Below the pieces are notes generated by a model. The model was not told the origin of the DNA. It did not search any database and saw nothing but the letters and a program-made list of their open reading frames with translations. A DNA stretch of 64,000 nt from a virus, in IMG/VR virus record IMGVR_UViG_3300048592_000418, positions 1 to 64,000 of that record. The stretch is one strand, 5' to 3'. Positions 8,695 through 58,037 of this stretch are shown piece by piece; position 1 is the stretch's first letter, and each line of letters opens with the position of its first letter. The position numbers and the translations under genes were made by a program.

Positions 8695-8746
8695 TTGCGC
8701 TTGTGCGCATCGTGAACCAAACACGGTTCCGGGCGCTGGGAACCAT
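8695..8746 (+). promoter_or_regulatory. Class II promoter/operator plus downstream half-site
   Basis: TTGCGC-N12-TGAACCAAACACGGTTCC (8713-8730); GGAACCAT at 8739. Confidence 0.7.
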
Positions 8747-8778
8747 TTTCGGCGCGACGAAAACGAAACGAATTCATC

Positions 8779-9648
8779 ATGGATACACCGACAACGGCGG
8801 CGGAAACTACGGGAGCCAAAAGAGGTTCCCTTGCGACGAAACTCGCGATGGTTCTGACGAAGATCAATCGCGTCCCGAAGAACGGCGAAAACAAGTTTCA
8901 CAATTACAAGTTCGTCACCGAATCGGATCTGTCCGATGCAGTGCGGGCCCACCTTGGCGAAGTTGGCGTGTTCATCTTCACCGATCAGGCGGAAGTGACG
9001 CGCACCGAATGGAAAAAGACGAGCCGTGGGGAAGAGCAATGGATGACGCGCGTGAAGCTCACGCACACGTTCGTTGACGGCGACACGGGCGAGACGTTCA
9101 GTGTCACGAGTTACGGCGAGGGAATCGACGGTGGGGACAAAGGACTTTACAAATCGATCACCGGCGCGACGAAATACTTCCTTTACAAGAATTTTCTGAT
9201 CTCCACTGGCGACGATCCGGAGCGCGAAAACGACAACGAACGCCGGCAGGATCGCGAGGAAGCAGGCAGCGACGGACGCTACGCGCGCCGCGAGCGCGTT
9301 AATCCCGACGGCGACGGCGGACGCTCCCGCCAGCAGCAGAGCACGGGCGCCGCGGCCGGAACGGCGCAGCAGGAAAAGAAGGCGCCGGAAGTCCCGCGGG
9401 ATCCGGAAGTGAAGCTGGGGGACATGCTCCCGAATGGCGAGAAATGGGAAAACGTCGTCATTCACTTCGGGAAGAAATACAAGTCGAAGAAGCTCGGCGA
9501 ACTGACGCCGGAGCAGATCAACGCATGGGCGGACGAGTGGAATCCGTTCGCTGACGCCGAGGGAAACCGGCGCGAGGCGTCAGACGAAGACAAACACCTT
9601 CGGATCGCGCTGAACGCTTACAAGCGCGAGCGCGACGCGAAGCAGTAA
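8779..9648 (+). CDS. erf: ERF-family single-strand annealing protein
   Basis: VPKNGENKFHNYKFVTESD...YGEGIDGGDKGLYKSITGATKYFLYKNFLISTGDDPE. Confidence 0.9.
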   Translation: MDTPTTAAETTGAKRGSLATKLAMVLTKINRVPKNGENKFHNYKFVTESDLSDAVRAHLGEVGVFIFTDQAEVTRTEWKKTSRGEEQWMTRVKLTHTFVDGDTGETFSVTSYGEGIDGGDKGLYKSITGATKYFLYKNFLISTGDDPERENDNERRQDREEAGSDGRYARRERVNPDGDGGRSRQQQSTGAAAGTAQQEKKAPEVPRDPEVKLGDMLPNGEKWENVVIHFGKKYKSKKLGELTPEQINAWADEWNPFADAEGNRREASDEDKHLRIALNAYKRERDAKQ

Positions 9649-9694
9649 ACTCCCGCAGCGCGCATCCCGCGCTTTTCCTCCCTCGCTTTAGGAA

Positions 9695-9710
9695 TGTTCC
9701 ACGTGGAACA
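9695..9710. promoter_or_regulatory. parS: parS centromere-like site (ParB/Spo0J consensus)
   Basis: Intergenic perfect palindrome TGTTCCACGTGGAACA, extended to GAATGTTCCACGTGGAACATTC (9692-9713). Confidence 0.9.
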
Positions 9711-9742
9711 TTCACGCTTTCACCTATCCGCACGAAACGATC

Positions 9743-12112
9743 ATGAAATTAGAACGCATCATTGCCCGTGGTATCATGGGCTTAAACATAGACGAGAAAC
9801 TAGACGCGGCGAACGTGTTCGTCGCTCCGAATTGGCTGAAGGGAAAGACGGCGCGCGCGCATGCGATCACCGTCCTTTTGCTCGGCTATCTTCCGAAGCT
9901 CGGCAAACGCAATCAGGACACCGCGCGGCTGATGTCGGCGCGCGAAATGCATTTGGAAGGGCATTTTACCGGCGGGATCGTCCTGTCCCGGACGTTCACG
10001 ATGAAGGGCGGATCCGTGAAGTGCGAAGCGAAGATCCCGCCGCAGCTCGGCAACGCGGACGAACTGGCGATCATGCTGAACTTCGGCGAATACGCTGCGC
10101 AGACGGAACAGGCGCGCCGGGATTACGTGTTCGGACTGCTGAACCTGTCCGCGATGACGGAGTTCAGCGAATCAGCCATGGTGGGCGAAGTCCGTGCGGC
10201 CGTTGCGAAGGCGTGCGGCGAAGACGACGCGACGCGCAAGGCCGTTGACGCGCTGACCGCGAAGATCGCCGATTGCGTGAAGGAACAGGCGCCGGAGCTG
10301 ACGCGGGGCTGTGCATATTCTCCCGGCGAGGATCCGGAGCTGTCCCCGCAGCAATGGCTAGGCGTCGCACTCGAAGCCGCGGCCGAATTCACGAAGTCCG
10401 CGAAGGAATACGCCGCGCGGATGGAAAAGACGGTTCAGGGCATCACGACATTGAAACTTCAGGACACGGCGCCGGCCGTGAACCTCGCGGCCGTTGAAGC
10501 CGAGCGGGAGCGCGTCACGCGCGAGCGGGAAGCCATCGTTGCGCGCCGGGAAGAGCTGAACGCGCAGAAGAAGCAGATCGACGAAGCTCGCCGGCGCCGG
10601 AACCTGATCACGGAAACGCTGCGCGAACTTCAGCCGAAGATCGAAGCGCTCGCGGCACTGAAGGCGAAGCTCGCGGCGAACACGTCGAACAGCGAAGCGG
10701 CGGCGAAGGAAATGTTCGCGCTCGTGAAGACGCGGCACGATCTGGACACGCAGCTTCGCGAAATCGACGCCGCGGGGATCCGCCGGCGGGAAATCAATCA
10801 CCGGCTTCCGGCGTTGAAGCGCGCGAAGGACAAGGCGCAAGCGTGCCGCGATCACATGGAAGAGCTGGACAAGCGTTTCAGCTTCGAGCGGCTGACGACT
10901 GCGGGGCAGGCAGTGGCAACGGCGGAGGAAGCCGCGCGGTTCAATGCGAACGAGCAAACGCGGATCGGGCGCGATCTGCTGGACTACCGGCGCACGCTGG
11001 AAGGCCGGGAAACGGCGCTGGCGAGCATCGGAGCCGCGACGCAATGCCCGACATGCCATGCGGCCGGCGAAGGCTGGAAAGCGCTGCGAACGGCCGAACT
11101 GAACACGGAGATTCAGGAACTCACCGGCAAGATCGCGGCGCTGTCCGACGAATTGGAAGAACTGCGCGTGACGGCGGCGGAAGCAAGCGCGGCCGTGATG
11201 AAGGCGAAGAATGCGCACGCGGAGCTGATGCAGTTCGGACGCGAGCGCGATTCGCTCGAACGCGAGATCAAAGACTACGCGCGAGACGCGGAGGAAGCGG
11301 ACAAGCTCGAAGCCGAGCTGACCGCGCTCCCGCAGCCGAACGCGGAGCTGACCGCACAGTTCGGCACGGCGAACGCGCGATGGTCGGAGCTGGCGAAGGC
11401 GGCAGACGAGCGGCGCGCGCTCGAAGCGGACATTGCGAAGGCGGAAGCCGCGGCCGGCGACGTGCAACGGCTGAACGCCGAGCTGACCGCGCTGACGCCG
11501 GACGATCCGCAGATCGAAGCGGCGATTCAGGCGAAGGTTTCGGAATACAACGCGAATCTGACGCGCGCGAACGAGCTGGATCAGCAACGCCGGCTTGCGG
11601 AGAAACGCCAGAACGACGCGCAGCGCGCGGCCGAAGCGGAAACGCAGCGGACGGAAGCGCTCGCGGAAGTTGCCGTGTCGAAACAGGCGGCGGCAACGCT
11701 GAAGGAAATTCAGGAACGCTTTGTTCGCGCTGCATTCGATCCCGTGCTGAAGTCGGCGAACGCGCACTTCGGCGCCATCCTGCAAACGCCGCTCGCATAC
11801 AACGACGGCGAGATCGGCACGTGGCGAAACGGAACATGGGTTTCGCACAAGACATTCAGCGGCGCCGAAGAACGGCTTGCCTACTGCGCGATCAGCATCG
11901 CACTCGCCGCGCGCTCGAAGCTGAAGATCGCGATCATTGACGAACTCGGCACGGTGGACGACGGCAACGCCGCGAAGCTGATCGATGCCGTAGGCGCCGC
12001 GCTCGAAAGCGGATTCATCACGCAGTTCGTCGGAATCGACGCCGGCCGCGCGAAGCTCTATCGCGATCACGCCGCGTTCACAAATTACGTGTTGAACGTT
12101 CGCGAACTTTGA
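9743..12112 (+). CDS. Rad50/SbcC-like SMC-family ATPase
   Basis: Atypical Walker A APNWLKGKT, long coiled coils, zinc hook CPTC, signature FSGAE, Walker B IIDELGTVD. Confidence 0.85.
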   Translation: MKLERIIARGIMGLNIDEKLDAANVFVAPNWLKGKTARAHAITVLLLGYLPKLGKRNQDTARLMSAREMHLEGHFTGGIVLSRTFTMKGGSVKCEAKIPPQLGNADELAIMLNFGEYAAQTEQARRDYVFGLLNLSAMTEFSESAMVGEVRAAVAKACGEDDATRKAVDALTAKIADCVKEQAPELTRGCAYSPGEDPELSPQQWLGVALEAAAEFTKSAKEYAARMEKTVQGITTLKLQDTAPAVNLAAVEAERERVTREREAIVARREELNAQKKQIDEARRRRNLITETLRELQPKIEALAALKAKLAANTSNSEAAAKEMFALVKTRHDLDTQLREIDAAGIRRREINHRLPALKRAKDKAQACRDHMEELDKRFSFERLTTAGQAVATAEEAARFNANEQTRIGRDLLDYRRTLEGRETALASIGAATQCPTCHAAGEGWKALRTAELNTEIQELTGKIAALSDELEELRVTAAEASAAVMKAKNAHAELMQFGRERDSLEREIKDYARDAEEADKLEAELTALPQPNAELTAQFGTANARWSELAKAADERRALEADIAKAEAAAGDVQRLNAELTALTPDDPQIEAAIQAKVSEYNANLTRANELDQQRRLAEKRQNDAQRAAEAETQRTEALAEVAVSKQAAATLKEIQERFVRAAFDPVLKSANAHFGAILQTPLAYNDGEIGTWRNGTWVSHKTFSGAEERLAYCAISIALAARSKLKIAIIDELGTVDDGNAAKLIDAVGAALESGFITQFVGIDAGRAKLYRDHAAFTNYVLNVREL

Positions 12113-12141
12113 TTCACAAACGCGGTTCACGAAACGAAACC

Positions 12142-13845: not shown

Positions 13846-13911
13846 ACCGTTTCAGCTTTACCCTGAACTGATTTTCGGGATTTCTCCCATTCCTTCCTGA
13901 TTCAACGAAAA

Positions 13912-13950
13912 CAAAACCCGCCGGGCGTTGGAAGCGCTCCGGCGGGTAAA
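13912..13950 (-). terminator. GC hairpin with U-tract on the minus strand, upstream of the initiator gene
   Basis: AAA-ACCCGCCGG...CCGGCGGGT; the A-run precedes the stem on +. Confidence 0.55.
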
Positions 13951-14043
13951 ACTAACAAACGTGATGGCGAACAATGATCATGGGGTCGCACCTGTCAAGG
14001 TCAGCTTCCCCGGAATATCCTGTCAGAAAGCGGAGGGCCGCGC

Positions 14044-16273: not shown

Positions 16274-16329
16274 CGCGCGCGCACTCGCACGGACCGCCGG
16301 GCGCGGGATTCGTCCCCGCTCGGCGGTTC

Positions 16330-20302: not shown

Positions 20303-20550
20303 GCCGCTTTCCCCGCAGCGATCCCGCGTCCGGGTGGGCGCACGTTGACGTTCGCCTGAACGCGAACGGGACGTTCGACATCCTGACATCCTTCACGCTT
20401 TGCCCGCTGGGGAATCTTCAGGGTGAAAAGGTGAAGAACCTGAAGCGGACCGGCATCACGGACAAGGGGGAAGCGCTCCGGAACGCCGAAACGCTGGACG
20501 CCTATCTTGAAATGCAGGAAAACCGAGGAACCAAAAAAGGCGAAAAATAA
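20299..20550 (+). CDS. Hypothetical protein
   Basis: ATGA-coupled ORF. Confidence 0.65.
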   Translation: MSRFPRSDPASGWAHVDVRLNANGTFDILTSFTLCPLGNLQGEKVKNLKRTGITDKGEALRNAETLDAYLEMQENRGTKKGEK

Positions 20551-20552
20551 TC

Positions 20553-20594
20553 GAAAATAGGTCTTGCAATGGAACCAAACATGGTTCCTAGTGT
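20553..20594 (+). promoter_or_regulatory. Class I promoter/operator
   Basis: A-tract, TTGCAA(20564)-T-GGAACCAAACATGGTTCC-TAGTGT; 19-bp spacer. Confidence 0.85.
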
Positions 20595-24664: not shown

Positions 24665-24698
24665 TGCTTGCACACGGAACCAAACTTGGTTCCATTGT
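24655..24698 (+). promoter_or_regulatory. Class I promoter/operator
   Basis: TTGCAC(24668)-AC-GGAACCAAACTTGGTTCC; CATTGT at 19-bp spacing. Confidence 0.8.
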
Positions 24699-24705
24699 GG
24701 GCACG

Positions 24706-24993
24706 ATGACGAACACGAAACGAAACAGCCGGATCCGGAACTGGGAGCCGTGCGCATATACCGCTCCCGCCAAGTCCGCCGAGCGCATCAAAGCGTTTCT
24801 TCGCGCCGGCGGGCGCGCCGAAGTCAGGACTTACCTGACGGTCACGACGATTGACGGCCGGACACTCTTGCGCTTCGAGTCCGTCGGCGCTTACCTGCTG
24901 CGCGACGAAGGCGAAGGCTACCGGATGCAGCGCGGGAACTCGTCCGTTTATCTGATGCCCGGTCAGCTCAAAATCTCGGCGCCGCTCGCATGA
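24706..24993 (+). CDS. Hypothetical protein
   Basis: First ATG after the promoter. Confidence 0.65.
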   Translation: MTNTKRNSRIRNWEPCAYTAPAKSAERIKAFLRAGGRAEVRTYLTVTTIDGRTLLRFESVGAYLLRDEGEGYRMQRGNSSVYLMPGQLKISAPLA

Positions 24994-27935: not shown

Positions 27936-27982
27936 AAAATCGGGGCTTTACTTTCCAACACGAAGGAACCAAAAAAGGCGCA
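27933..27982 (+). promoter_or_regulatory. Class II promoter with operator half-site
   Basis: TTTACT(27947)-N12-GGAACCAAAAAAGGCG; the same 16-mer occurs at 20527. Confidence 0.65.
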
Positions 27983-27987
27983 CGAAG

Positions 27988-28308
27988 ATGAAACGACAAA
28001 TCACACTCGCAGTTCTGAACGCAGCGATTTCGCTGATGCTCCGCATCGAAGCGCGGGCGCGAGTGTGGCGCGCGAATCTCGAAGCGTGCAAGACGCGCCG
28101 CATCGGCGGGCACTGCATCGAAGTGACTCCGGGTCTGATGGAAGTCCGCGGAAGCGTCCGCGGCACGTTCATTCCCGCTGGCGGCGAACTGCCTGCCGGC
28201 TTCTACGGCCGCGGGCCGGTGGGTCCGGATCGCTCGAAGAACTTCCGCGAGCTGATGCCGGATCCGCTCGAACATTTCCAGCGCTCGAACAACTCGAAAC
28301 GCACATGA
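27988..28308 (+). CDS. Hypothetical protein
   Basis: First ORF after the promoter. Confidence 0.6.
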   Translation: MKRQITLAVLNAAISLMLRIEARARVWRANLEACKTRRIGGHCIEVTPGLMEVRGSVRGTFIPAGGELPAGFYGRGPVGPDRSKNFRELMPDPLEHFQRSNNSKRT

Positions 28309-28625
28309 ATCAGAAGACGACACCGAACACCGAAATCGACAAGGGCAAGGAACTGACGCGCCGGGCGCTCGCCAAAGTTGAAAAATACTTGGACAAGACG
28401 CCGGGCAGCGTGAAGCGACTCGCCGAATTCCTGACGAAGCGGACCGGCCGCGAAGTCGCGCGTCAGCGCGTCACGCGCTGGTTTGCTTCCGATCTGGCCG
28501 CACGGCCGGAACCGCTTTTCAGCACGGGCTTGCTTATGCTGGAATGGTGGAAGCTCGAACAGAAACGCGCCGAGCGGGAAAAGCAGAAGAGCGAAACCGC
28601 TCCGGCTACGGCTCCGGCGGAGTGA
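28305..28625 (+). CDS. Cro/XRE-like HTH DNA-binding protein (candidate operator-binding regulator)
   Basis: SVKRLAEFL...VARQRVTRWF...PEPLFSTGLLMLEW. Confidence 0.6.
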   Translation: MNQKTTPNTEIDKGKELTRRALAKVEKYLDKTPGSVKRLAEFLTKRTGREVARQRVTRWFASDLAARPEPLFSTGLLMLEWWKLEQKRAEREKQKSETAPATAPAE

Positions 28626-29289: not shown

Positions 29290-29909
29290 CAACGCACACG
29301 GAGGATCCGAAGTTCAAAGTAGTTGCCGGAGAAATTGCGCAGCGCATCGCCGGCGTCATGACGGGACTCGAACAAGTCCAGCAGGCGACGCAGCGCGCAA
29401 CGAACGCCGCGCACGCGCTGAACGGTTACATCGAACGCGCGCAGTCAATCTTCGCGATTGCATTCGTCAGGAAGGCGATTGACCGCGAGCACTTCGCGCA
29501 CGCGTCGCCGAAGACGCGCCGGCGCTGGATCGAACGGCTCGAAGCCAAGGTGACGACGGACATCAGGGAAGCCATGAGCTGCGAAGAAGTGTGCTTCATG
29601 CTGAACGCGACTTGCACCGTTCACCTTTTTCCCGCATCAGACGAGACTCGCGCGCATTGGAACGCCGTTGCGAGCGCGCGAATCAAACAACTCGAAACGA
29701 ACATGAACGACAAACGAACTGACAAGGAACGAGCCGAATTCGTCGTGAAGCTGAAAGACGCGGAAGTGATTTTGAGCATGCGCTCGCTTCGCTTCGTTGA
29801 AGCGATCCTTCCGCTCTGCCGTAACATCGCCGGCGGCGCCGGGGAATTCACTGCATCGCAGCGCGAAAGCATCGACATGCTTATGACTCAGCACGGGGGG
29901 AGCGTCTGA
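29286..29909 (+). CDS. Hypothetical protein
   Basis: ATGA-coupled ORF. Confidence 0.6.
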   Translation: MTTHTEDPKFKVVAGEIAQRIAGVMTGLEQVQQATQRATNAAHALNGYIERAQSIFAIAFVRKAIDREHFAHASPKTRRRWIERLEAKVTTDIREAMSCEEVCFMLNATCTVHLFPASDETRAHWNAVASARIKQLETNMNDKRTDKERAEFVVKLKDAEVILSMRSLRFVEAILPLCRNIAGGAGEFTASQRESIDMLMTQHGGSV

Positions 29910-30534
29910 TCCGATGCTCCGCTTTGTGACAGTCTTCGCAGAGTGTCAGGCCGTTACTGACTTCAAATCGAAGTTCAGGAAATTGGGCGAATGGCTTTAC
30001 GTGATGCGCGTGCAATTTTGGGCGATCATCGCACGGGCATCGCACGCACTTGTAACCGTCGCGCCGAAGAACTGCGCGACGCCAGCGGCGACTTTCAGGC
30101 GTCCAACGGGCACGGATCTTTTTCTGAGACTGACCCGCGCTGAAGAGATAATGATTTTCACCGCGCGGCGTTCGCTCGCTCGTCAATTGGGAGATCAACG
30201 CGCGAGTTTCTGGCGTATGCTTTTTTCCGAGGCGATTGGATGGTTTTCCTTTTCTGGATTCGCTCATTTTTGCACGAGATTCGAGCGTGTGCTTCATACC
30301 TTTGAACGGGCTTGGTCCGTAAACGCGCGGCTTCTTCGGACGGCGCGGATGAAGTTTGCAGCATCGTTTTATTCCGTCGTAACGCGAGCGATCTACGGTG
30401 AATGCATCGCGAGGACGCCAGTCGTTGCACTTATTACACCACGCGAATGCAGCGAGCTTTTCACGGAGCTGTTCAAGTGTCATGCCGTGACGCTTCGCTT
30501 CAATCTTCAGCGCGCCTTCGCGTGTTTGTGCCAT
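29881..30534 (-). CDS. HNH homing endonuclease with NUMOD3 repeats (only minus-strand gene)
   Basis: GMKHTLESRAKMSESRKG, GKKHTPETRALIS, VLRRDGYKCVRC...LHAHHVKPF...SNGLTLCEDCHKAEH. Confidence 0.9.
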   Translation of the reverse strand: MAQTREGALKIEAKRHGMTLEQLREKLAAFAWCNKCNDWRPRDAFTVDRSRYDGIKRCCKLHPRRPKKPRVYGPSPFKGMKHTLESRAKMSESRKGKPSNRLGKKHTPETRALISQLTSERTPRGENHYLFSAGQSQKKIRARWTPESRRWRRAVLRRDGYKCVRCPCDDRPKLHAHHVKPFAQFPELRFEVSNGLTLCEDCHKAEHRIRRSPRAES

Positions 30535-30570
30535 TCCTGAAATTCAGACAAATTCGCAACATTTTTCAAT

Positions 30571-35386: not shown

Positions 35387-36170
35387 TCTCGCGGCGACTC
35401 GTCAGGACTGCATTTGCTTCGCGGAAGTCGGGATCGGTTCGCGATGGCTTCAGGGCGGGAAGATCCCGATCCCGGACTTGCTGACGCTTCAGCGCAGTTA
35501 TACGAAACCGGCGCCGACGATCTACGAATGCAAGGTGAGCAAACAGGACTTTGCCGGCGACGTGCGCACGGGCAAATGGATGAAGTATCTCCCGCTCTGC
35601 TGTCGCTTTTATTTCGCGCTCCCGGAAGGCATCGTGAAGAAGACGGAGATCCCGGAAGAAGCCGGGCTGATCGTGCGCGGCGTTACCGAATGGCGCGTTG
35701 TGAAGGCGCCGAAGTTTCACGTCCCGACGGAATGGGATCTCGTGAACGTGCAATCGCTTTTGCTCGCCGGCGCATGGACGCAGGAACGAGCGCGGAACCT
35801 GCGCGAGCGCTTGGTTTGGGCGGACAACGGGAAGATCGCGGAGAGCGCGAAGGCGCTCGGCTGGAACATTCGCGAGGCAATCGCGCGGCTGCGCACCGGG
35901 GAAGCGGCGTCTGCCGGCGGGCACGTGATGAACGCCGTTGCGGAAGTGCTCGGCGTCAGCGTCCCGGAGTTGGTTGGAATGTCCGAGTCATCGATCAAGC
36001 TCGCGCTCGCGAACAAGGAAAAGACGGATCTCGCGCTCGAAGCGCTGTCCGAGCTGGCGAGCGCGATCCGCTGGGGGAACACGGAAAATCTGGCGAAGTT
36101 GCTCGCGCAATTTAAGCCGCGTTATGAAATCACGAAAACGAAACGAAAAAATGGAACAGCAATCCTTTGA
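35310..36170 (+). CDS. MmcB-like PD-(D/E)XK protein
   Basis: IPDLL...IYECKVSKQDFAGD...KWMKYLPLCCRFYFALP...IPEEAGLI. Confidence 0.8.
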   Translation: MTDHRVTTKLDEPRAQVWTHRALIDDLAATRQDCICFAEVGIGSRWLQGGKIPIPDLLTLQRSYTKPAPTIYECKVSKQDFAGDVRTGKWMKYLPLCCRFYFALPEGIVKKTEIPEEAGLIVRGVTEWRVVKAPKFHVPTEWDLVNVQSLLLAGAWTQERARNLRERLVWADNGKIAESAKALGWNIREAIARLRTGEAASAGGHVMNAVAEVLGVSVPELVGMSESSIKLALANKEKTDLALEALSELASAIRWGNTENLAKLLAQFKPRYEITKTKRKNGTAIL

Positions 36171-36768: not shown

Positions 36769-37313
36769 GCTTCGAGGCGTTCGACGGCCGGGACGGCGTG
36801 ATCGTGCTCTGTCCGGCGTGCTCGTGTCCGCCGCTGATGGAAGTGCGGCCGTCATGGGGTTTCGCTCGGCACACGAGCGCGCGGGAAGGCCGGCGCTTTT
36901 GGATTTGGTCGGCGGCGTGCGCACACTCCGCGGCCGTGGATCCTAAGCAGGTGATCCCGGATGACGGTCGCGCGGCCGTTGAAGCGCGCTGGACAGCGGA
37001 AACGCTGAAGGCGTTCGGCACCTACACGGCGAACTGGAAGCCGGAACACCGTGAGGCATGGCGCGAAAAATTTCCTGAAAATAGTGCTTTACAGGAAGCG
37101 AAAAAGGAACCAAACATGGTTCCCGACGATACGAAACCAAACGAAACGAAGCACGGAAATGAACACTCGCACACTGACCCCGGAACAGCTCGAACGGACC
37201 GCGAAAGCGATGCAGCTTCACGCGAAGCTGGCAGCGGTGGACATCACGGAGATCCCGACGCTGACGCTGGATCGTTGCATCAGCCGGAAGGATCAGGCGA
37301 AGCTCGCACGTGA
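36765..37313 (+). CDS. Hypothetical Zn-finger protein; frame runs through the next promoter
   Basis: CPACSC; no stop before the promoter at 37088. Confidence 0.5.
   Translation: MSFEAFDGRDGVIVLCPACSCPPLMEVRPSWGFARHTSAREGRRFWIWSAACAHSAAVDPKQVIPDDGRAAVEARWTAETLKAFGTYTANWKPEHREAWREKFPENSALQEAKKEPNMVPDDTKPNETKHGNEHSHTDPGTARTDRESDAASREAGSGGHHGDPDADAGSLHQPEGSGEART
37076..37123 (+). promoter_or_regulatory. Class II promoter/operator
   Basis: GAAAATAGTGC-TTTACA(37088)-N12-GGAACCAAACATGGTTCC. Confidence 0.85.
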
Positions 37314-38422: not shown

Positions 38423-38464
38423 GCTTGCACGCGTCGCGGCGGGAACCATGAATGGTTCCGCGAC
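38412..38464 (+). promoter_or_regulatory. Class II promoter/operator
   Basis: TTGCAC(38425)-N11-GGAACCATGAATGGTTCC (38442-38459), flanked by GTCGC...GCGAC. Confidence 0.8.
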
Positions 38465-38501: not shown

Positions 38502-40655
38502 ATGACGACGAACTTAGACGATAAATTCAACCGGCCGGATCCTGTCTTCCGCGCTCCCATTGCGACGGCGCCAGTCTCGAAGGACAAAAACCCGCCGGTC
38601 TGGCCGGAGAAATTCCGCGCCGTGCTGTCCGTGCTGAAGTGGGACGAAGAAGATCTGGAAGTCCCGACGAAATACGGTCCGCGGCTGCTGCGGAAGGCAT
38701 TCCCGACACCGCAGTTTTACGAGCTTTGGCGCGACGAAAAGCCGGCGCTGAAAGAGCTGGGGATCTCGCTCGGACGCAATCCGCGAACGGACGAGTGGGA
38801 AGTTTGCCTGTGGCGCGAACTCCCGAAGGAACGCACTGCCGAGCGCGAAGCGGCGAAGGCGGCAAGCCGCGCGACGGATGCCGTGATCGATGTTCCGAAG
38901 CCGGACGGGCTGGAATATCTCGGCTATCAGCGCGCGGGGATCGCGTTTGGCATGCACCGGCCGGCGACGCTGATCGGCGATGAAATGGGACTGGGGAAGA
39001 CGATTCAGGCAATCGGCATCATGAATGTCGACACGGCCGCGAAGCGGATTCTCGTCCTTTGCCCGGCGTCGCTGAAGCTGAACTGGCACCGCGAGCTGAC
39101 GAAATGGCTCGTTCGGAAGCGCATCATTTTCGTCGGCGACTCGAAGGTTTGCCCGGATCTCGCCGACGGGATCGTGATCATCAATTACGACGTGCTGCAC
39201 AAGCACGCGGACTTCCTGCATTCCGTCGTTTGGGACATCGTTGTTGCGGACGAAGCGCACTACCTGAAGAACCGGAAGGCGCGCCGCTCGGAAATGGTTT
39301 TCGGTTACAAGCCGACGAAGAAGGAAGCGTTCAACGGCGCCGTCGAAAAGCCGGCGATTCAGGCGAAGCGGAAGATCTTCCTGACGGGAACGCCGATTGC
39401 GAACCGCACCGCGGAGCTGTTTCCGATCATTCACTATCTGGATCCGGTTTCATGGCCGACCTTCTTCGGCTACGCGCGGCGCTATTGCGCGGCGACGCAG
39501 GGCGCGCACGGCTGGGACTTTTCCGGCGCGTCGAATCTGGAAGAGCTTCAGGACAAACTTCGGCAAACGATCATGGTTCGCCGGCTGAAAAAAGACGTGC
39601 TGAAGGAACTCCCGCCGAAGCGGCGCCAGATCATCGAAATCCCCGCGGAAAAAGACATGGTTGCGGACATTCGCGCGGAAATGGACGCGTATGATCGCGC
39701 CATGAGCGGCGAGGGGATCGAACAGCTCGAAGTTGAAGCCGAGCTGGCGAAGGCGTCCGACGATCCGGAGGTTTACAAGCGGGCCGTTGAAAAGCTGAAG
39801 AAGGCCGGACAGGCGGCGTTCACGATGATCAGCGCGGTCCGCGCGGCGACGGCGGAGCGCAAGATCCGGATGCAGGCTGTCCGCGATCATCTCGAAGAAG
39901 CCGTTGAGAACAGCGGGAAGGTGATCATTTTCGCGCATCACAAAACCGTCGTTGCCGCGATTCTGGAACAGTTCGGCAACGCGGCCGTGGCAATCGTCGG
40001 CGACACGCCGATGAAGGATCGGCAAGACAACGTTGACCGCTTTCAAAAGGATCCGACGTGCAAGGTGATCGTCGGCTCGTTCGGCGCGATGGGAGTCGGG
40101 CACACGCTGACGGCTTCGAGTCACGTGATCATGGTGGAACTCGACTGGGTTCCCGGCAACGTGACGCAGGCGGAGGATCGCGCGCACCGTATCGGGCAAC
40201 TGGAAAACGTGCTCGTGCAACACTTGGTTCTCGAAGGTTCGCTGGACGCGCGGATCGCGAACAAGATCGTCGAAAAGCAGGACATCATTGATCGCGCGCT
40301 GGACAAAATCACGCTCGCCGCGGCGCCGATCAGCGTTCGGCCGAAGCGGAAGAGCGATGACGCAGCGACGGCCGGCGCGACGCCGGACAAGCTCGCCGAA
40401 GTCGGCGCGAAGCTGACGAACGACCAGATCGCCATGATTCACGAAGGGCTGAAGCGGCTCGCCGGAGTCTGCAACGGCGCCGTGGACTGGGACGGGATGG
40501 GTTTCAGCAAAATCGACACGATGATCGGAAAGTCGCTCGCGTTCTCTGCGTTCCTGTCCCGGAAACAGGCGGCGCTCGGAATGCGCCTGTGCATCAAATA
40601 CCGCGGGCAGCTCGGCGACGGCATGATCGCGCGCATCAAAGGGGACATGGTATGA
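38502..40655 (+). CDS. SNF2 helicase (HARP/SMARCAL1-like)
   Basis: DEMGLGKTIQA, CPASLKLNW, DEAH, LTGTP, RRLKKDVLKELPPK, QAEDRAHRIGQ. Confidence 0.95.
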   Translation: MTTNLDDKFNRPDPVFRAPIATAPVSKDKNPPVWPEKFRAVLSVLKWDEEDLEVPTKYGPRLLRKAFPTPQFYELWRDEKPALKELGISLGRNPRTDEWEVCLWRELPKERTAEREAAKAASRATDAVIDVPKPDGLEYLGYQRAGIAFGMHRPATLIGDEMGLGKTIQAIGIMNVDTAAKRILVLCPASLKLNWHRELTKWLVRKRIIFVGDSKVCPDLADGIVIINYDVLHKHADFLHSVVWDIVVADEAHYLKNRKARRSEMVFGYKPTKKEAFNGAVEKPAIQAKRKIFLTGTPIANRTAELFPIIHYLDPVSWPTFFGYARRYCAATQGAHGWDFSGASNLEELQDKLRQTIMVRRLKKDVLKELPPKRRQIIEIPAEKDMVADIRAEMDAYDRAMSGEGIEQLEVEAELAKASDDPEVYKRAVEKLKKAGQAAFTMISAVRAATAERKIRMQAVRDHLEEAVENSGKVIIFAHHKTVVAAILEQFGNAAVAIVGDTPMKDRQDNVDRFQKDPTCKVIVGSFGAMGVGHTLTASSHVIMVELDWVPGNVTQAEDRAHRIGQLENVLVQHLVLEGSLDARIANKIVEKQDIIDRALDKITLAAAPISVRPKRKSDDAATAGATPDKLAEVGAKLTNDQIAMIHEGLKRLAGVCNGAVDWDGMGFSKIDTMIGKSLAFSAFLSRKQAALGMRLCIKYRGQLGDGMIARIKGDMV

Positions 40656-42226: not shown

Positions 42227-42319
42227 TGGTCGCGATTCGTGAACAGTTCAGTCCGCCGAGCGAAACGCGCCGAGCATGGCGCCGGTTCGTGCAAGCGCTC
42301 GCGCGTTTGTGTTGGCGCC

Positions 42320-42367
42320 TGAAATTAGGGCTTTACTTGTGCTCACGCTGGAACCATTCATGGTTCC
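42320..42367 (+). promoter_or_regulatory. Class II promoter/operator
   Basis: TTTACT(42332)-N12-GGAACCATTCATGGTTCC, the exact reverse complement of the 38442 site. Confidence 0.8.
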
Positions 42368-42383
42368 GAATTACGAAACGAAA

Positions 42384-44483
42384 ATGAAAACGACACCGAT
42401 TATCGCTCAAGTTTGGGCGACAGCGTTCGCCGGCGCGCCGTCAGAATGGCCGGAATGGTTCGCGCTTTGGTATGACACGAACACGCCGATTCCGCGTTGC
42501 ACGGAGCCGAGCGCGAACATTCTCGAATCACTCGCGGAAGAATTCCGCGAAGGCGATGAAGCGGCCGGCGAGGTTCGCGCGACATGCCTGAACTGGCAGC
42601 GCGATCCGTGCTTCGATCTGACGGAATATGATCACGTCGCGAAATGGATCGGTTCGCGTGCGTGGACTGCCGTTCATCAGTGGGAAGACGCTTGGCAAAC
42701 CTACTGGCAGCAAAAGAAGGCTCGCGGCGAGGAAGTCGCTCGCGAAATGTTTTTTCACTGGCGCGAGACATTCGCCAACGAAGCCGTCGCGCGCTTCCTC
42801 AAAAACGCAAAGCATCCGTCATCATGGCATCATTCGACAAAACGATCCTCATCGGGAATCTCGTCCGGGATCCCGAACTCCGCGTCACGCCGAAAGGCAC
42901 CCCGATCTGTCAGTTCGGGATCGCCATCAATCACACGTATCAGCTCGAAAGTGGAGAAAAGCGCGAAGAAGTCGTCTTTCTCGACTGCGAATGCTGGGGA
43001 AAGCGTGGCGAGACAATCGCGAAATACTTCACGAAAGGAAAACCGATCCTTGTCGAGGGCCGGCACAAGCTCGAACAGTGGGAAGACAAAAACACGAAGC
43101 AAAAGCGCAGCCGGATCAAAATCGTCGTTGAACAGTTCCGCTTCGTTGACTCCGCTCGTTCACGCGAAGACGGCGACGGCGGCGGCGACGAAGACGACGA
43201 TCACCGGACGCCGGCGCGCAGTTCTGGCGGGAGCGCTCCCGGCCGCGGATCAGGCGCGTCTAGACCCGCAAGCAACGAAAATCTCGACGAAGACGTTCCC
43301 TTCTGATCATGGATCCAAACGCAACGACGGTGGAGATCGAAGCGGCGCGCCTGTCGCGGGAACAGTCGCTTCAGATCGGGACGACTCACGACGCGCTGAC
43401 GCGAGTCATGCGGGTTCTGGATTGCACGCCGGCGACGGCCGCGGGACTTCTGCGGCAAGCCTTCCTTCGGGACATGGCGAAACCGCCGGCGCAACGGGAA
43501 GGGCTGGCGAACTCGCTCGCGGCCGTGATGGCAGCGCGGTTCCCGCTGCTGATGCGGGACAAAAACGGCCGGCTGACGCTGGCGCGCTGATCCATGAACC
43601 CGGAAGCATGGAAACCGATAAACCCGGAGCCGCCGGGCGAGCCGATGATCGTTCACAAGGGCCGGAGCACGGGGAAAAGCGTGCTGATGGTGGGCGCGAA
43701 CTTCGGCAAATCGGAAACGCTGCGGCAGCAAGTCGCGGCGCTGCTGGCAGCGGATCACCGGCTGTTCGTGGTTCCGCAGAACCCGCCGGCGGAAGTGCTC
43801 GAAGCGCTGCGGGCGGAGCGCGCGAGGGAAGCGGAGCACTGGATCTTCCGGGACGAGCTGAAGACGCCGGCGGAAATCCGGGCGCTGCTGGGTCGCGAAG
43901 TGGTGATCGTGGCGCACGAAGCAAACCCGATGATCACGGCGGAAAGCATCCTCGCGGCGAAAGAAAAACTGATGCAGGAACCGCCGGCGTTTCAAAAGAT
44001 CGTCGCGGAGCGGATCCCGATCAGCGCGGACACAAACGCAACCGAACCTTGGCCGGAGCCGTCGGACAAGCCGGCGAAACGGCCGCGGGGATTCGCGAAG
44101 GCGAAGGGCTGGAAGGCAAAGCAGCGGGCGAAGCGAAAGGCGCAACGTCGGGCAAGGCAGCGCGCGCGCGGCTGAAGTGGGAATTCGAGGCGCCGCTTTA
44201 CACCGGCGACGAACGAGCGCGGGGCGCATGCATCAAAGCGACGGACGCGGCCGGGAAGCTCGTTCACTGGATCCCGCTCGGCGCCTATCCGTCGGACTCG
44301 CATCAGGCGAGCGCGCGCGAAATGGTCCGGCTGCTGAACGACGCGGAAGACATGCGGGCGCCGGTTCCGGAGCTGGAAGGCTCGTTTCCGCTCGTCCTTT
44401 ACTTCGGCAGTCAGGCGGACGCGGACGAGTTCACGCGCATCGCGCAGGCGGCACAACCCGGATTGACGGCGAAGCAGCTATGA
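42384..44483 (+). CDS. Trp-rich protein whose frame stays open across ssb and two more genes
   Basis: ATG after promoter and ACGAA leader; protein-like to ~42820 and again from 44172. Confidence 0.45.
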   Translation: MKTTPIIAQVWATAFAGAPSEWPEWFALWYDTNTPIPRCTEPSANILESLAEEFREGDEAAGEVRATCLNWQRDPCFDLTEYDHVAKWIGSRAWTAVHQWEDAWQTYWQQKKARGEEVAREMFFHWRETFANEAVARFLKNAKHPSSWHHSTKRSSSGISSGIPNSASRRKAPRSVSSGSPSITRISSKVEKSAKKSSFSTANAGESVARQSRNTSRKENRSLSRAGTSSNSGKTKTRSKSAAGSKSSLNSSASLTPLVHAKTATAAATKTTITGRRRAVLAGALPAADQARLDPQATKISTKTFPSDHGSKRNDGGDRSGAPVAGTVASDRDDSRRADASHAGSGLHAGDGRGTSAASLPSGHGETAGATGRAGELARGRDGSAVPAADAGQKRPADAGALIHEPGSMETDKPGAAGRADDRSQGPEHGEKRADGGRELRQIGNAAAASRGAAGSGSPAVRGSAEPAGGSARSAAGGAREGSGALDLPGRAEDAGGNPGAAGSRSGDRGARSKPDDHGGKHPRGERKTDAGTAGVSKDRRGADPDQRGHKRNRTLAGAVGQAGETAAGIREGEGLEGKAAGEAKGATSGKAARARLKWEFEAPLYTGDERARGACIKATDAAGKLVHWIPLGAYPSDSHQASAREMVRLLNDAEDMRAPVPELEGSFPLVLYFGSQADADEFTRIAQAAQPGLTAKQL
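42824..43306 (+). CDS. ssb: Single-stranded DNA-binding protein
   Basis: ILIGNLVRDPELRVTPKG...KGKPILVEGR...DEDVPF. Confidence 0.97.
   Translation: MASFDKTILIGNLVRDPELRVTPKGTPICQFGIAINHTYQLESGEKREEVVFLDCECWGKRGETIAKYFTKGKPILVEGRHKLEQWEDKNTKQKRSRIKIVVEQFRFVDSARSREDGDGGGDEDDDHRTPARSSGGSAPGRGSGASRPASNENLDEDVPF
43309..43590 (+). CDS. Hypothetical protein
   Basis: ORF directly after ssb. Confidence 0.6.
   Translation: MDPNATTVEIEAARLSREQSLQIGTTHDALTRVMRVLDCTPATAAGLLRQAFLRDMAKPPAQREGLANSLAAVMAARFPLLMRDKNGRLTLAR
43594..44175 (+). CDS. Hypothetical protein with basic C-terminus
   Basis: Ends KAKQRAKRKAQRRARQRARG. Confidence 0.6.
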   Translation: MNPEAWKPINPEPPGEPMIVHKGRSTGKSVLMVGANFGKSETLRQQVAALLAADHRLFVVPQNPPAEVLEALRAERAREAEHWIFRDELKTPAEIRALLGREVVIVAHEANPMITAESILAAKEKLMQEPPAFQKIVAERIPISADTNATEPWPEPSDKPAKRPRGFAKAKGWKAKQRAKRKAQRRARQRARG

Positions 44484-51432: not shown

Positions 51433-51444
51433 CCCCCGCACCGC

Positions 51445-52157: not shown

Positions 52158-52160
52158 ACC

Positions 52161-52856: not shown

Positions 52857-53128
52857 GCGGGATCAACGCCATGATTGACCGGGCGTGCGGCGTGACGCCG
52901 GAAATGCGGTCGCAATGGGCGCGCGACGCTGCGGCGCCGAAAATCGTGCTCGCGTGCCAGCGTTGCGGCGCGGAGAAATCGACGACACGGGATCCGGTTT
53001 GGCCGAAGTCTGCGGCGTTCTGTTTGTTCCCGTGCTCGGACTGCATTACGCGCGAGGAACGGCGGAATCTGATTCTGGCGCCGCTGGAATTTTTCGACGC
53101 GCTCGGCGTGCGGATCCCGTTTCCATGA
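52853..53128 (+). CDS. Zn-finger hypothetical protein
   Basis: CQRC...CSDC; GTGA-coupled. Confidence 0.6.
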   Translation: MSGINAMIDRACGVTPEMRSQWARDAAAPKIVLACQRCGAEKSTTRDPVWPKSAAFCLFPCSDCITREERRNLILAPLEFFDALGVRIPFP

Positions 53129-53307
53129 ACCAAAAACGGTTCAACCCGATGCGGTTTGCCGTTGCATGCGCGGCGCTTGGCGCTTTGCTGGCGCTCGTCT
53201 TCTTCACTTGCTGCGGCGAACGCCTGTGCGCATGGCTGACCGATTGGATCGATCTGCGCATTGATCGCGTTGGCCGATGGCTGAACAACGAACCCAAACG
53301 AAAATGA
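53125..53307 (+). CDS. Small membrane protein
   Basis: FAVACAALGALLALVFF. Confidence 0.5.
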   Translation: MNQKRFNPMRFAVACAALGALLALVFFTCCGERLCAWLTDWIDLRIDRVGRWLNNEPKRK

Positions 53308-55049: not shown

Positions 55050-55867
55050 TCGCACTCACATTCACTCGCACCGAATGGGCGGCGTTCGGCATGGGCGCCG
55101 GCGTCGTCATTCTTCTGTTCCTGATCGCGGCCGGTCTGCTGTTCTGGCACTGGGGAAGAACGATCCCGCCGGAGTTTCGCGAGAAACCGCCGGGACCGCC
55201 GGAGCATCAGAACTGCCGATGCGTGCCGCGGCCGGAGCTGACGCCGGACGAGCGGGATCGGATGACTCACGGCCGATTTGAGAACACCCCGGATCCGAAA
55301 CGTGACACGCTGGGGCTGATTCTGGCGCGAATGTTCATCTTCGTCCCGACGGAAGGGCCGGCGGCGAACACGCGACGGCTGATCGATGGCGCCGAAGCGC
55401 AGGCGATGGCGCTCGGCGTTTACAAGGAACCGGCGACGGTGATCCGCATGCTCTCGAACCTTCAGCGCGGGGAATGCGCGTGCGTCAGTGTCGCCGGCGG
55501 CATGCTCGAACGGCCGCGCAAGCTCGGCGAGGTTCCGCATCCGACGCCGGGACGGGACAACGTGTCCCCGCTGCGCAATCACCCGGAACTCGCGGAGGAT
55601 CCGCAATACATCCGGCAATGCCTGCGCTCGCGGGACATGGCGGAGGACTACGCAGCGCGCACCGGACGCCGGCCGGAGCTGTTCGGCTTGCGCTCGGCGG
55701 CGGGAAGCGGGATCCTGCTGACGCGCAAGCGGGCCGTGGAATTCGCTGCGAAGCATTATCCGCCGTCCGGCGCCGAAGACATCATTGCCAGTCTCGCGCG
55801 CGGCGCATGCAGTCGCGTTGACGTTGGCAGCGGCACGATCACGAGGTTCGAGCTGACGGCGAGCTGA
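55046..55867 (+). CDS. Membrane-anchored protein with internal repeat
   Basis: N-terminal TM; PPEHQNCRC; duplicated L.RG.C..V.V..G...R unit. Confidence 0.6.
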   Translation: MIALTFTRTEWAAFGMGAGVVILLFLIAAGLLFWHWGRTIPPEFREKPPGPPEHQNCRCVPRPELTPDERDRMTHGRFENTPDPKRDTLGLILARMFIFVPTEGPAANTRRLIDGAEAQAMALGVYKEPATVIRMLSNLQRGECACVSVAGGMLERPRKLGEVPHPTPGRDNVSPLRNHPELAEDPQYIRQCLRSRDMAEDYAARTGRRPELFGLRSAAGSGILLTRKRAVEFAAKHYPPSGAEDIIASLARGACSRVDVGSGTITRFELTAS

Positions 55868-56103
55868 TGCCGCTCGCGCGAATGCATGTCATCCCAGTCG
55901 GCGGAGCGGAGCCGGTTCACGTCGCTTCGCCGAACTGCTGGTGTTATCCCGCGGTGAAGACGCTCGAAAACCCGGCGCCGGCATATCATCCGGACATGAT
56001 TGTTCACAACGCCGACGATAAGCGCGAGCGTTGGGAACAGGTGACAGGACGGCCGCGCGATCCCGGCGCGAAATGGGTGAACGTCTGCGAAGAAGTCCCG
56101 TGA
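55867..56103 (+). CDS. Small metal-binding protein
   Basis: HV.P...H....CWC.P....IVHN..D.RE. Confidence 0.6.
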   Translation: MPLARMHVIPVGGAEPVHVASPNCWCYPAVKTLENPAPAYHPDMIVHNADDKRERWEQVTGRPRDPGAKWVNVCEEVP

Positions 56104-56894
56104 GGAACATCCGCCGGCACAATTTGGACGAACCCCGGCCGCGACACGTCGAAAAGGCCGCGCGATCACCCGAAACCGCCGCGCGACGGCCGGAAAAGGT
56201 CGCGCAACCCGTGGAAACGGCACCGCGAACGGCCGCGGAGCCGGTGCGATACCCTCCGGAATTCGTCGGACCGCCGGCGCTCGAAGGCTACGCTCGCGCG
56301 CATTTCACGCGCTGGGGATGGCGCACGGAGATCCCGCGGGACAGGTTCGCGCGGATCGGCAAATGGGGCGAAACCGGGATTCAGGGAATCGGGCCGAACG
56401 GCCGGATCCTGTGCCTGTGCGGCTGCGGCCGGGAAGTTCCCGTGTCGAAACGGCACACGACGAAGTTCCGGCCGGGCTGCTGGGAGGAATGGGCGAAGGT
56501 TCACGACGCGAGCACGGTCCGACGGCACGTCTGGAAGCGGGACAAGGGCGTTTGCGCGGAATGCAGGGTGGACACCGAAGCGCTGAAGCGCGAGACGGCC
56601 GCGAAGCTCGGCGAAGACGTGCGGCGCAACTGGGACGGGAATTTTTACTTCGTCGGCTTCAGCCGCGCGGCGCGCCGGGCCCACCATATCCCGCCGGGAT
56701 TCCCGGACGTTGATCGCGCATGGTGGGAAGCCGATCACCGCGTCCCGGTGATCGAAGGCGGCGGGCTGTGCTCACTCGAAGGCATGCGGACGCTGTGCAT
56801 CCCCTGTCACAAAAAGGCGACGGCCGCGCTTGCTGCTAGACGCGCCGCGGCGCGCGTTCCACCCTCCGCGGAATGCCAGCTTCAACTTTCCTGA
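56100..56894 (+). CDS. HNH endonuclease
   Basis: RDKGVCAEC...WEADHRVPVIEGGG...RTLCIPCHKKAT. Confidence 0.88.
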   Translation: MRNIRRHNLDEPRPRHVEKAARSPETAARRPEKVAQPVETAPRTAAEPVRYPPEFVGPPALEGYARAHFTRWGWRTEIPRDRFARIGKWGETGIQGIGPNGRILCLCGCGREVPVSKRHTTKFRPGCWEEWAKVHDASTVRRHVWKRDKGVCAECRVDTEALKRETAAKLGEDVRRNWDGNFYFVGFSRAARRAHHIPPGFPDVDRAWWEADHRVPVIEGGGLCSLEGMRTLCIPCHKKATAALAARRAAARVPPSAECQLQLS

Positions 56895-57325
56895 GATCGC
56901 GCGACTGGCGCGAAAAACTCGGCGGCGTTTCCATCGCCTATTTCTGGAACGAGACGTTCGGCTTCGGCGTTCTGACGTGTTGGCCGATCAACTTCGCGCA
57001 GTTCAAAACGATTGCGCGGCACTACGGCGTTGCGCGAGCTGACATCGCCGCACTGGGAACGACGGAGATCCGGAGCGCGCAGTATTTCTTTTTCCCGGAG
57101 CGCGAAACGCACGTGATCGCGTTCTCGAAGCGGGAAGTCGCGGCGCGTGACGTAGGCGTGATCGCGCATGAGTCGTTCCATTGCGTGCGGAATGCGCTGC
57201 GGCGCCGGGGAATCACGACGGACGGCGGCGACGGCGAGGAAGCGCACGCCTACGCGCTCGGATGGCTGACGAACAAGATCACGGACGCACGCGGGATCGT
57301 GCGTTACCGGGATCCGTCCAAGTAG
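56873..57325 (+). CDS. HExxH motif protein
   Basis: IAHESFH...EEAHAYALGWL. Confidence 0.7.
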   Translation: MPASTFLRSRDWREKLGGVSIAYFWNETFGFGVLTCWPINFAQFKTIARHYGVARADIAALGTTEIRSAQYFFFPERETHVIAFSKREVAARDVGVIAHESFHCVRNALRRRGITTDGGDGEEAHAYALGWLTNKITDARGIVRYRDPSK

Positions 57326-57341
57326 AATCTAATTGGATTCC

Positions 57342-57384
57342 CGAAAAAAGTGCTTGCAAAGGAACCAAACATGGTTCCTAGTGC
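57342..57384 (+). promoter_or_regulatory. Class I promoter/operator
   Basis: TTGCAA(57354)-A-GGAACCAAACATGGTTCC-TAGTGC. Confidence 0.85.
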
Positions 57385-57406
57385 AGTCCACGAAACGAAC
57401 CCGAAC

Positions 57407-57997
57407 ATGAAAACATTCCAATTCGTCACTGACATCGCGAAGAACAATTCCGTTGATCCGGAGTTCATCGCGTCCGAACTCGGACACGCCGGGCCGAACG
57501 CGGCAAACGGCGCTTTGCTTGCCGTGCGTCGCGTCTGCGATGGCGGCGAAGTTCGCCGCGTGTTCCAGCTCGGCAACGGCCGCAAGGTTCTCCGGGTAGA
57601 GAGCTACGGCCGCACGATCAGCATTTACGAAAACGCGGAAGACATTCCCGCGGCGCCGCAGACGCTTCCCGTCGGCACGGTGATCGCCGGCTTCACGTAT
57701 TCGACGAGCCGGAAGGATGGACTCCCGACGGCGTTCGCGTCGCGCGACTGCGAAACGTCGTTCAAGATCGAAGACGTGCGCGAGTGGCACGTGTCGCGGG
57801 AATACGGCAGCGCGATCTATCGGCTCGGCGCGACGCTCGCCGACGGCCGGCTTGTGTTCGTCGTCCGCTCGCAGCTTCCGAATTACATCGCCGATCCGCT
57901 CGGCAAGATCGCGGAAGCCGTGCGGCGGAACACCGTCCGGCACAGCGGCGGAAGCCGTTCGATCCAGTTCTGGCACGGGCCGGCGCTGAAAACCTGA
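57407..57997 (+). CDS. Hypothetical protein flanked by promoter direct repeats
   Basis: ATG after ACGAA leader. Confidence 0.7.
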   Translation: MKTFQFVTDIAKNNSVDPEFIASELGHAGPNAANGALLAVRRVCDGGEVRRVFQLGNGRKVLRVESYGRTISIYENAEDIPAAPQTLPVGTVIAGFTYSTSRKDGLPTAFASRDCETSFKIEDVREWHVSREYGSAIYRLGATLADGRLVFVVRSQLPNYIADPLGKIAEAVRRNTVRHSGGSRSIQFWHGPALKT

Positions 57998-58037
57998 AAA
58001 AATGTCTTGCAAAGGAACCAAACATGGTTCCTACTGT
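57996..58037 (+). promoter_or_regulatory. Class I promoter/operator
   Basis: TTGCAA(58007)-A-GGAACCAAACATGGTTCC-TACTGT. Confidence 0.85.

Follow-up and report, generated by a model that had tools for sequence, protein, structure and literature searches.

A repeated 18-bp dyad placed in two registers within the promoters of an uncultured phage, a probable operator of one dimeric regulator

Promoters of the MerR/SoxR type, such as Tn501 merOP and soxS, carry a 7-4-7 dyad in a 19-bp spacer, and lambda cI and the C proteins of restriction-modification systems are XRE-type dimers whose effect depends on the position of the operator relative to the -35 and -10 elements. XRE/lambda-repressor-type proteins normally repress when they are bound inside the core promoter. 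In the systems controlled by Aca repressors the inverted repeat is invariably placed inside the core promoter (PMC9410906), the early genes of SIRV2 share one common promoter motif, for which Aca8 is the probable repressor (PMC11065993), and phage P1 has 11 late promoters that depend on Lpa and carry its site, a conserved inverted repeat (PMC10695390). Here we describe an 18-bp dyad, GGAACCA-N4-TGGTTCC, in the promoters of a phage known from the IMG/VR record IMGVR_UViG_3300048592_000418, which is complete at 102,004 bp with a 127-bp overlap between its ends; the window analysed is its first 64 kb (64,000 nucleotides, nt). The dyad lies between the -35 and -10 elements in one class of promoter (class I) and over the expected -10 position in the other (class II), and, judging from sequence and position, it very probably serves a single dimeric regulator as its operator within promoters of the sigma-70 type.

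Seven exact dyads (20571, 24676, 37106, 38442, 42350, 57361 and 58014) and two with two mismatches (8713 and 8812) were found in the window, nine sites where dinucleotide shuffles gave an expectation of 0.13 and where none of 100 shuffles reached nine matches; half-sites are present at 8739, 20527 and 27965. A preliminary description of the window had reported the palindrome and its half-sites in nine promoters, and our pattern scan recovered all of their coordinates and added the site at 8812, which was not in that list. When the scan was extended to the complete genome, a check proposed in that description, it gave 13 exact dyads and one site with one mismatch, those beyond the window being at genome positions 65298, 66807, 68929, 72228, 74468, 77461 and 79854, and the nine promoters became 16, counting the two-mismatch site 8713 and the half dyad 27965. 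The core GAACC-N6-GGTTC has 16 matches genome-wide, 15 at promoter-like intergenic positions and one inside a gene (53126). Both 7-bp arms are identical in 13 copies, and the 4-bp centre is variable (AACA, AACT, TGAA) and flipped in 72228 and between 38442 and 42350; invariant arms around a variable, flipped centre are what one would expect of a symmetric dimer making its contacts in the arms.

Alignment of the units showed a conserved block of about 95 nt in the order two phased A-tracts (CGAAAAATTCC TGAAAATAGTG), CTTGCAAA, the dyad, TAGTGT and an ACGA-rich stretch; the A-tract and the -35-like hexamer previously noticed ahead of the sites are both conserved. The 16 dyad promoters have two phased A-tracts and a CTTGCA or CTTTAC -35, and we take the A-tracts to lie where E. 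coli rrnB P1-type promoters have their distal and proximal UP-element subsites. A weight matrix of the A-tract plus -35, from which 8713 was left out (4.1 in a separate scoring), gave 18-33 bits at 14 dyad-bearing sites and <10 bits at unit 27965. It detected no strong A-tract/-35 module free of the dyad, with other positions at ≤14.3 bits on the + strand and ≤15.8 on both strands, a test that is partly circular since the matrix was derived from the dyad sites themselves. The dyad promoters were not seen by a consensus promoter scanner because it permits 16-18-nt spacers only. The Bacteroidota -33/-7 promoter type was also considered and set aside, as neither its spacing nor its -7 motif fitted in a by-eye comparison.

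Scans of about 140 phage proteins against Pfam and PHROGs, on which the gene assignments below rest, found no RNA polymerase, sigma factor, DNA polymerase or integrase; with no phage RNA polymerase or sigma factor, transcription must therefore rely on host RNA polymerase, and we propose that the host enzyme transcribes all dyad units. N4-type hairpin promoters were rejected, the large proteins being a tape-measure and a J-like tail protein and no virion RNA polymerase being present.

Eleven units form class I (20571, 24676, 57361, 58014, 65298, 66807, 68929, 72228, 74468, 77461 and 79854). Their dyad begins 1 bp (nine units) or 2 bp (two units) 3' of a -35 hexamer (TTGCAA, TTGCAC, TTGCGT or TTGCGC), and in every one of the 11 a (T/C)A-N4 hexamer comes next, at a spacing of exactly 19 bp (TAGTGT in three, TAGTGC in two, and TACTGT, CATTGT, CAGTGT, CAGTGC, TAACTG and TAGTCC in one each). 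In nine units the dyad thereby fills the spacer from position 2 to 19; in the other two it runs from position 3 to 19 and on into the first -10 base. Its centre falls at about -21.5. This is the class I geometry claimed before, and it extends to 11 of 11 units. The distance from the -35 to the ATG is 32 nt and stays unchanged even when the dyad is shifted by 1 bp, hence the promoter frame is constrained independently of the exact dyad position, and such a constant frame marks a genuine promoter with transcription starting at or near the ATG. The ATG is found 7 nt after the -10 in five class I units and 4-5 nt after it in two more, a spacing by which these mRNAs are probably leaderless or near-leaderless; the apparently leaderless genes carry ACGAAC repeats in their first codons (N-termini MTNTK, MTTTN). 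The 43-nt promoter cores have about 82% pairwise identity, versus 28% for the flanking DNA, therefore the class I units are largely one amplified design and not 11 independent cases of a 19-bp spacer.

In the window, the class I units are all on the + strand. The unit at 20527-20594 consists of a half-site (20527-20533), the A-tracts, -35 TTGCAA (20564-20569), the dyad (20571-20588) and -10 TAGTGT (20589-20594). That at 24668-24708 has -35 TTGCAC (24668-24673), the dyad after a 2-bp gap (24676-24693), -10 CATTGT (24693-24698), which overlaps the last dyad base, and an ATG at 24706, 7 nt after the -10. Between the terminase and portal genes, the unit at 57354-57384 has -35 TTGCAA, the dyad (57361-57378) and -10 TAGTGC (57379-57384) with the ATG at 57407, and the unit at 58007-58047 has -35 TTGCAA, the dyad (58014-58031), -10 TACTGT (58032-58037) and an ATG at 58045, 7 nt after the -10.

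Class II consists of five units (8713, 27965, 37106, 38442 and 42350), in which the dyad begins 11-12 bp after TTTACA, TTTACT, TTGCAC or TTGCGC, in five of five as the preliminary description had it, and in which the dyad centre coincides with the expected -10 position. The registers of the two classes thus differ by a dyad offset of 10-11 bp. The class II hexamers at 16-17-bp spacing (CAAACA, CATTCA, CATGAA) are poor -10 elements, and no conserved -10 was found downstream of the dyad in the five units.

These units are likewise on the + strand. Ahead of erf, identified by an ERF Pfam match, the unit at 8695-8730 has a -35-like TTGCGC (8695-8700), a 12-bp gap and the degenerate dyad TGAACCAAACACGGTTCC (8713-8730), with the erf ATG at 8779; putative auxiliary sites lie at 8739-8829, namely the half-site GGAACCA (8739-8745) and the two-mismatch dyad (8812-8829), which sits within the first erf codons. 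The sites at 8739 and 8812 are likely auxiliary operators of the erf promoter, given their clustering, and the second erf site is unlikely to be due to chance, as 0.13 sites are expected per 64 kb and these are <100 bp apart. The unit at 27947-27990 is of the class II type with a half dyad only (-35 TTTACT 27947-27952, 12-bp gap, GGAACCAAAAAAGGCGCA 27965-27982, ATG 27988). An exact dyad (37106-37123) is present in the unit at 37088-37123, 12 bp after -35 TTTACA (37088-37093) and with the ATG at 37159; the three small genes behind it have no assigned function. The unit ahead of the SNF2 helicase (38425-38459) has -35 TTGCAC (38425-38430), an 11-bp gap and a dyad with centre TGAA (38442-38459), with the ATG at 38502, and the unit ahead of the SSB operon (42332-42367) has -35 TTTACT (42332-42337), a 12-bp gap and a dyad with centre TTCA (42350-42367), with the ATG at 42384.

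Two further observations belong to these regions. The match inside a gene, at 53126-53143, is a symmetric dyad variant (TGAACCAAAAACGGTTCA) closely like the erf site 8713; it lies in an open reading frame (ORF), some 150 nt ahead of the start of the large terminase gene, with no recognisable promoter module, and may represent a weak operator, a site related to packaging or a chance match. At 42276-44483 there is a 735-codon ORF that is probably a shadow frame, because its guanine-cytosine (GC) content by codon position is atypical; the real genes of this region, SSB (42644-43306) and two small genes, are in another frame, and a short gene probably starts at 42384.

A protein that might bind the dyad was sought among the products of the phage. 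The scans gave no match to the MerR family (MerR, MerR_1, HTH_17), and neither Pfam nor PHROGs recognised any regulator family among the phage proteins; rough regular expressions for MerR and helix-turn-helix (HTH) motifs also gave no match, a result that carries no weight. HTH-like matches were seen in the C-terminal FtsK-gamma-like winged helix of gp46229 (E = 3e-7), in gp52161, a probable small terminase, and in gp28305. The last is the only small regulator-like protein recognised in the phage: it has 106 amino acids (28305-28625, + strand), is encoded by the second gene of the 27965 operon, and is predicted to consist of a lambda-repressor/XRE-type HTH and a long C-terminal helix.

gp28305 has no Pfam match and no PHROG family, and sequence searches of the PDB, made to recognise the regulator, gave no matches. 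About 40 remote homologues of 80-140 amino acids carry the motif LAE-x-L-x3-TG-x2-V-x-RQ-x-V-x2-W, and the family (with P0125-P0164) has the fuller pattern PG...LAE.L...TG..V.RQ.V..WLH.DP..R.EP.LG.GLLLL. An AlphaFold model made from four sequences was too poor for use; the AlphaFold2 model with the homologue alignment as input had a predicted local distance difference test score (pLDDT) of 88.6 and was aligned against 48,161 PDB representatives. The structural matches were mostly lambda-repressor-like domains with Z 4.8-7.7 (POU-specific 7.7, ClgR 5.7, XRE regulators 5.5, LexA-like repressor 5.4, lambda cI N-terminal domain 5.3, restriction-modification C proteins 5.0-5.3, YdaS 4.9 and Aca11 4.8), values that are modest and in a range termed middling by the alignment tool. 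The N-terminal domain of AcrIIA15 was also among the structural neighbours, the ESM Atlas neighbours agree in fold class, and weak Foldseek rows include Aca1 and lambda cII. Since the fold class is consistent across the PDB matches, the ESM Atlas neighbours and the weak Foldseek rows, XRE/Cro-type HTH is a reasonable call for the modelled protein. The gene of gp28305 lies behind the sole promoter with a half dyad (27965), an arrangement that would suit weak autoregulation; this position is the single tie between protein and dyad, and their pairing is putative.

We therefore consider a model, derived from the sites and their positions, in which the dyad would be the operator of one dimeric DNA-binding regulator in every strong host-type promoter, each promoter having two UP-like A-tracts, a TTGCAA/TTTACA-type -35 and a TAGTGT-type -10. 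The regulator would sit between the -35 and -10 at class I and on the -10 and start site at class II, and both classes would be repressed, so that with the accumulation of the regulator early and middle transcription would be shut off or dampened in the manner of Cro, Aca or C1. Sensitivity to the regulator would differ among promoters, owing to the two registers and to the weak or clustered sites found at erf and in the regulator's own operon, and gp28305, encoded behind the half-site promoter, would be the best candidate protein. Repression is favoured because an operator inside a sigma-70 core most commonly means repression and an XRE-type dimer fits, and we regard it as likelier than MerR-style activation. 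If the dyad is the operator of a dimeric regulator, we lean slightly towards repression at class I; the full statement, with one regulator's operator in every strong promoter, both classes repressed and gp28305 as the best candidate, is tentative and falls just short of probable.

Several points weigh against this model. A 19-bp spacer is poor for unaided sigma-70 and is nevertheless kept in 11 of 11 class I units, which fits conditional activation better; with the shift of 10-11 bp the dyad of class II stays on the helical face that it has in class I, which matters more for activators; and the dyad centre at about -21.5 points toward help to RNA polymerase at class I. The single gp28305 homologue locus in IMG/VR has no repeated dyads, and many phage proteins without a recognisable family, or a host protein, could be the regulator.

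The first of these points lead to the alternative that a dyad-binding dimer activates class I, where it would compensate for the 19-bp spacer by MerR-like untwisting or in an Lpa-like way, and represses class II by covering the -10, so that operator position sets a temporal switch. Besides the filled 19-bp spacer in 11 of 11 units and the common helical face, this alternative can draw on the 19-bp frame, which persists where the dyad is displaced by 1 bp, and on the precedent of P1, with its symmetric Lpa site in 11 late promoters (PMC10695390). We consider it rather unlikely: the phage has no MerR-family protein and no Lpa homologue, and its sole small regulator-like protein is of the XRE type; Lpa promoters differ from class I, which has a good -35 and an UP-like element; and the roughly 82% identity of the class I copies makes the 19-bp spacing mostly one design that was amplified. 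The MerR-type reading of the preliminary description stands as far as the dyad in the 19-bp spacer is concerned (11 of 11) and lacks its protein, no MerR-family member being found among the roughly 140 phage proteins.

Class I resembles the MerR/SoxR promoters in its 7-4-7 dyad, roughly centred in a 19-bp spacer between reasonable hexamers, and differs from them in that no MerR protein is encoded, the same dyad also lies over the -10 (class II), 11 near-identical phage copies take the place of one stress operon, and an UP-like element and often a leaderless ATG are present. In the annotation of P1 the Lpa site is the '-22 region', 4 bp upstream of the -10, and the C1 operators are dispersed. 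As in P1, one short repeated site defines a phage-wide regulon, and the symmetric element is just upstream of the -10, near -22; however, P1 late promoters have a 9-bp element and no -35, whereas the units described here have a conserved -35 and an UP-like element, and the C1 operators are asymmetric 17-mers, whereas the dyad is symmetric. BLASTP and TBLASTN of P1 Lpa against the phage found no homologue (best E-value 0.38), although a remote one could escape BLAST, and comparison with C1 gave noise and no convincing homologue.

With lambda cI and the C proteins the candidate gp28305 shares its predicted fold class; as activators, however, those proteins bind upstream of or overlapping the -35 and not in the spacer, and there is no clustered tripartite operator here except possibly at erf. 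That an XRE/Cro dimer is a spacer-compensating activator at the eleven largely leaderless class I promoters and a repressor at the five of class II is quite unlikely in our estimate; if it were true, a single protein acting at a single site would control the entire early-to-middle programme of a phage that depends on host RNA polymerase. There is also a likeness to the Aca systems and to SIRV2 with Aca8 (PMC9410906, PMC6765145, PMC11065993), where a strong promoter is likewise reused before many small unrelated early genes; shared with the Aca systems are the inverted repeat in the core promoter and a suspected small HTH regulator, and Aca11 and Aca1 are near the gp28305 fold. Unlike in Aca and SIRV2, 16 units over 70 kb share one operator here and recombination/replication operons are included, and unlike in Aca systems gp28305 is outside the operons of most of its presumed targets and no cassette gene is known as anti-defence. 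The kind of circuit that the repression model describes is already known in phages, and its two-register layout is unusually clean: if the model holds, 16 uses of one upstream element, one -35 and one dyad in two registers about 10.5 bp apart would be a clean natural experiment in promoter architecture, with a practical value that is limited since host and phage are both uncultured.

The genes behind the promoters follow the division claimed in the preliminary description, class I heading small genes without assigned function and class II mostly recombination/replication operons. The class II operons are those of erf with an SMC-like ATPase and UvrD, of gp28305, of the three small genes, of the SNF2 helicase and of SSB, and the class I genes are small and without Pfam or PHROG function. 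Two class I cassettes lie between the terminase and portal genes, with a GC-rich hairpin 3' of the 58014 cassette, and nine class I units are contained in a 16-kb array of about 45 small ORFs (genome ~63.5-80.7 kb, promoters 65.3-79.9 kb). This array is inside the structural module, with the head protease on one side and the scaffold and capsid genes on the other, and is closed by a clear intrinsic terminator at genome position ~80,690. The promoter motif marks the roughly 45 small genes as co-regulated and probably an early set, and in other viruses co-regulated early small-gene sets are enriched for host-takeover and anti-defence functions (PMC11065993).

Since the units head about 45 unrelated small genes and the cassette proteins are not paralogous among themselves, the dyad might instead be a structural or recombination hairpin at a mobile cassette boundary. 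The cores are 82% identical against 28% in the flanks, the dyad forms a hairpin of -6.4 to -8 kcal/mol as a single strand, and the promoter-early stem-loop (PeSL) elements of T4-type phages are a precedent for repeated promoter/stem-loop motifs that mediate shuffling (PMC2839356, PMC4122927). As in the PeSL systems, a hyperplastic region holds repeated promoter units of about 50-90 bp that separate small, unrelated and rapidly changing genes; in a PeSL, however, the stem-loop is a terminator beside the promoter, whereas the dyad here is within the spacer, lacks a T-run after it and so is not a terminator, and at class I, being between the -35 and -10, is outside the unit's own transcript. Along the same line, the GGAAC half could be the -35 of an extracytoplasmic function (ECF) sigma factor, for which a perfectly conserved second arm would be unneeded and class II offers no matching -10. 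The scans of the phage proteins found neither a recombinase nor a sigma factor gene, and we hold the hairpin and ECF explanations together to be highly improbable. A recombination role of the repeats is compatible with the operator reading, and cassettes may be shuffled by recombination between units.

A host transcription factor site that was copied into all phage promoters, and that ties phage transcription to a host signal, would also produce such a pattern; there is no convincing phage regulator tied to the dyad, and if class I is immediate-early the factor must pre-exist at infection. The host link consists of one weak SSB match (49% identity) to a Lentisphaerales metagenome-assembled genome. 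This genome has no dyad at ≤1 mismatch in 4.7 Mb, and since it uses Shine-Dalgarno-like sites and the phage does not, it is probably not that of the host. The exact 18-mer had 28 single matches in the JGI metagenomes, none seen in a phage-like promoter context. We judge this explanation very unlikely, and the operator of one regulator remains our preferred reading of the dyad.

Among 50,697 deposited phage genomes, hardly any is related to this phage. An exact-pattern scan of IMG/VR gave single chance matches only for the bare dyad and none for the dyad with the -35. SNF2 homologues in IMG/VR have ≤55% identity and belong to very diverse phages (GC 28-67%), in none of which the dyad was found. 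Closer relatives, a SNF2 at 85% identity on a 78.8-kb Logan contig and gp28305 homologues at 83-86% identity, are not in IMG/VR.

Other repeats were observed in phages that share SNF2. L151 (IMG/VR, 92 kb, GC 65%) has its own 7-4-7 dyad, TTTGCGG-N4-CCGCAAA, four times (9748, 15532, 19413 and 21536), two of them about 10 bp upstream of a promoter-like pair TGGACG-N17-TAG(G/T)GT; hence phage-specific dyad regulons may be common among SNF2-sharing phages. L139 has four 20-bp palindromes (CCGCGATCAATTGATCGCGG) with a 72-bp period at 994-1230, and L172 has three units of about 60 nt with an ACAGCCC-N4-GGGCTGT hairpin at 1208, 1579 and 3883.

The phage itself has a GC content of about 61%, and the + strand holds essentially all genes. 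Pfam and PHROGs assigned lambda-like siphovirus tail genes (tape measure, minor tail, tail protein L and a J-like tip protein), head and packaging genes (portal, MuF-like head protein, protease, scaffold and terminase), recombination/replication genes (ERF, SMC-like ATPase, UvrD and SNF2 helicases, O-like initiator, DnaC-like loader, SSB and a HerA-like protein), ParB-like proteins and methyltransferases. Shine-Dalgarno-like 4-mers precede 14% of genes versus 15% of random positions over the whole genome, and Shine-Dalgarno use is thus not shown by the sequence of the phage. ACGAA/AACGA repeats precede a quarter of the genes downstream of an intergenic gap (e.g. 4681-4705, 12117-12141 and 36126-36150) and may be a translation enhancer that is effective on either side of the ATG. 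A perfect 16-bp parS-like palindrome (TGTTCCACGTGGAACA) was observed at ~9700-9720, just upstream of the SMC-like gene, and the ParB-like genes are at 48.2-50.3 kb. In a 661-nt gap in the + strand gene call (29910-30570) there is a minus-strand ORF of 217 codons (29881-30534), which would be among very few reverse-strand genes of this phage.

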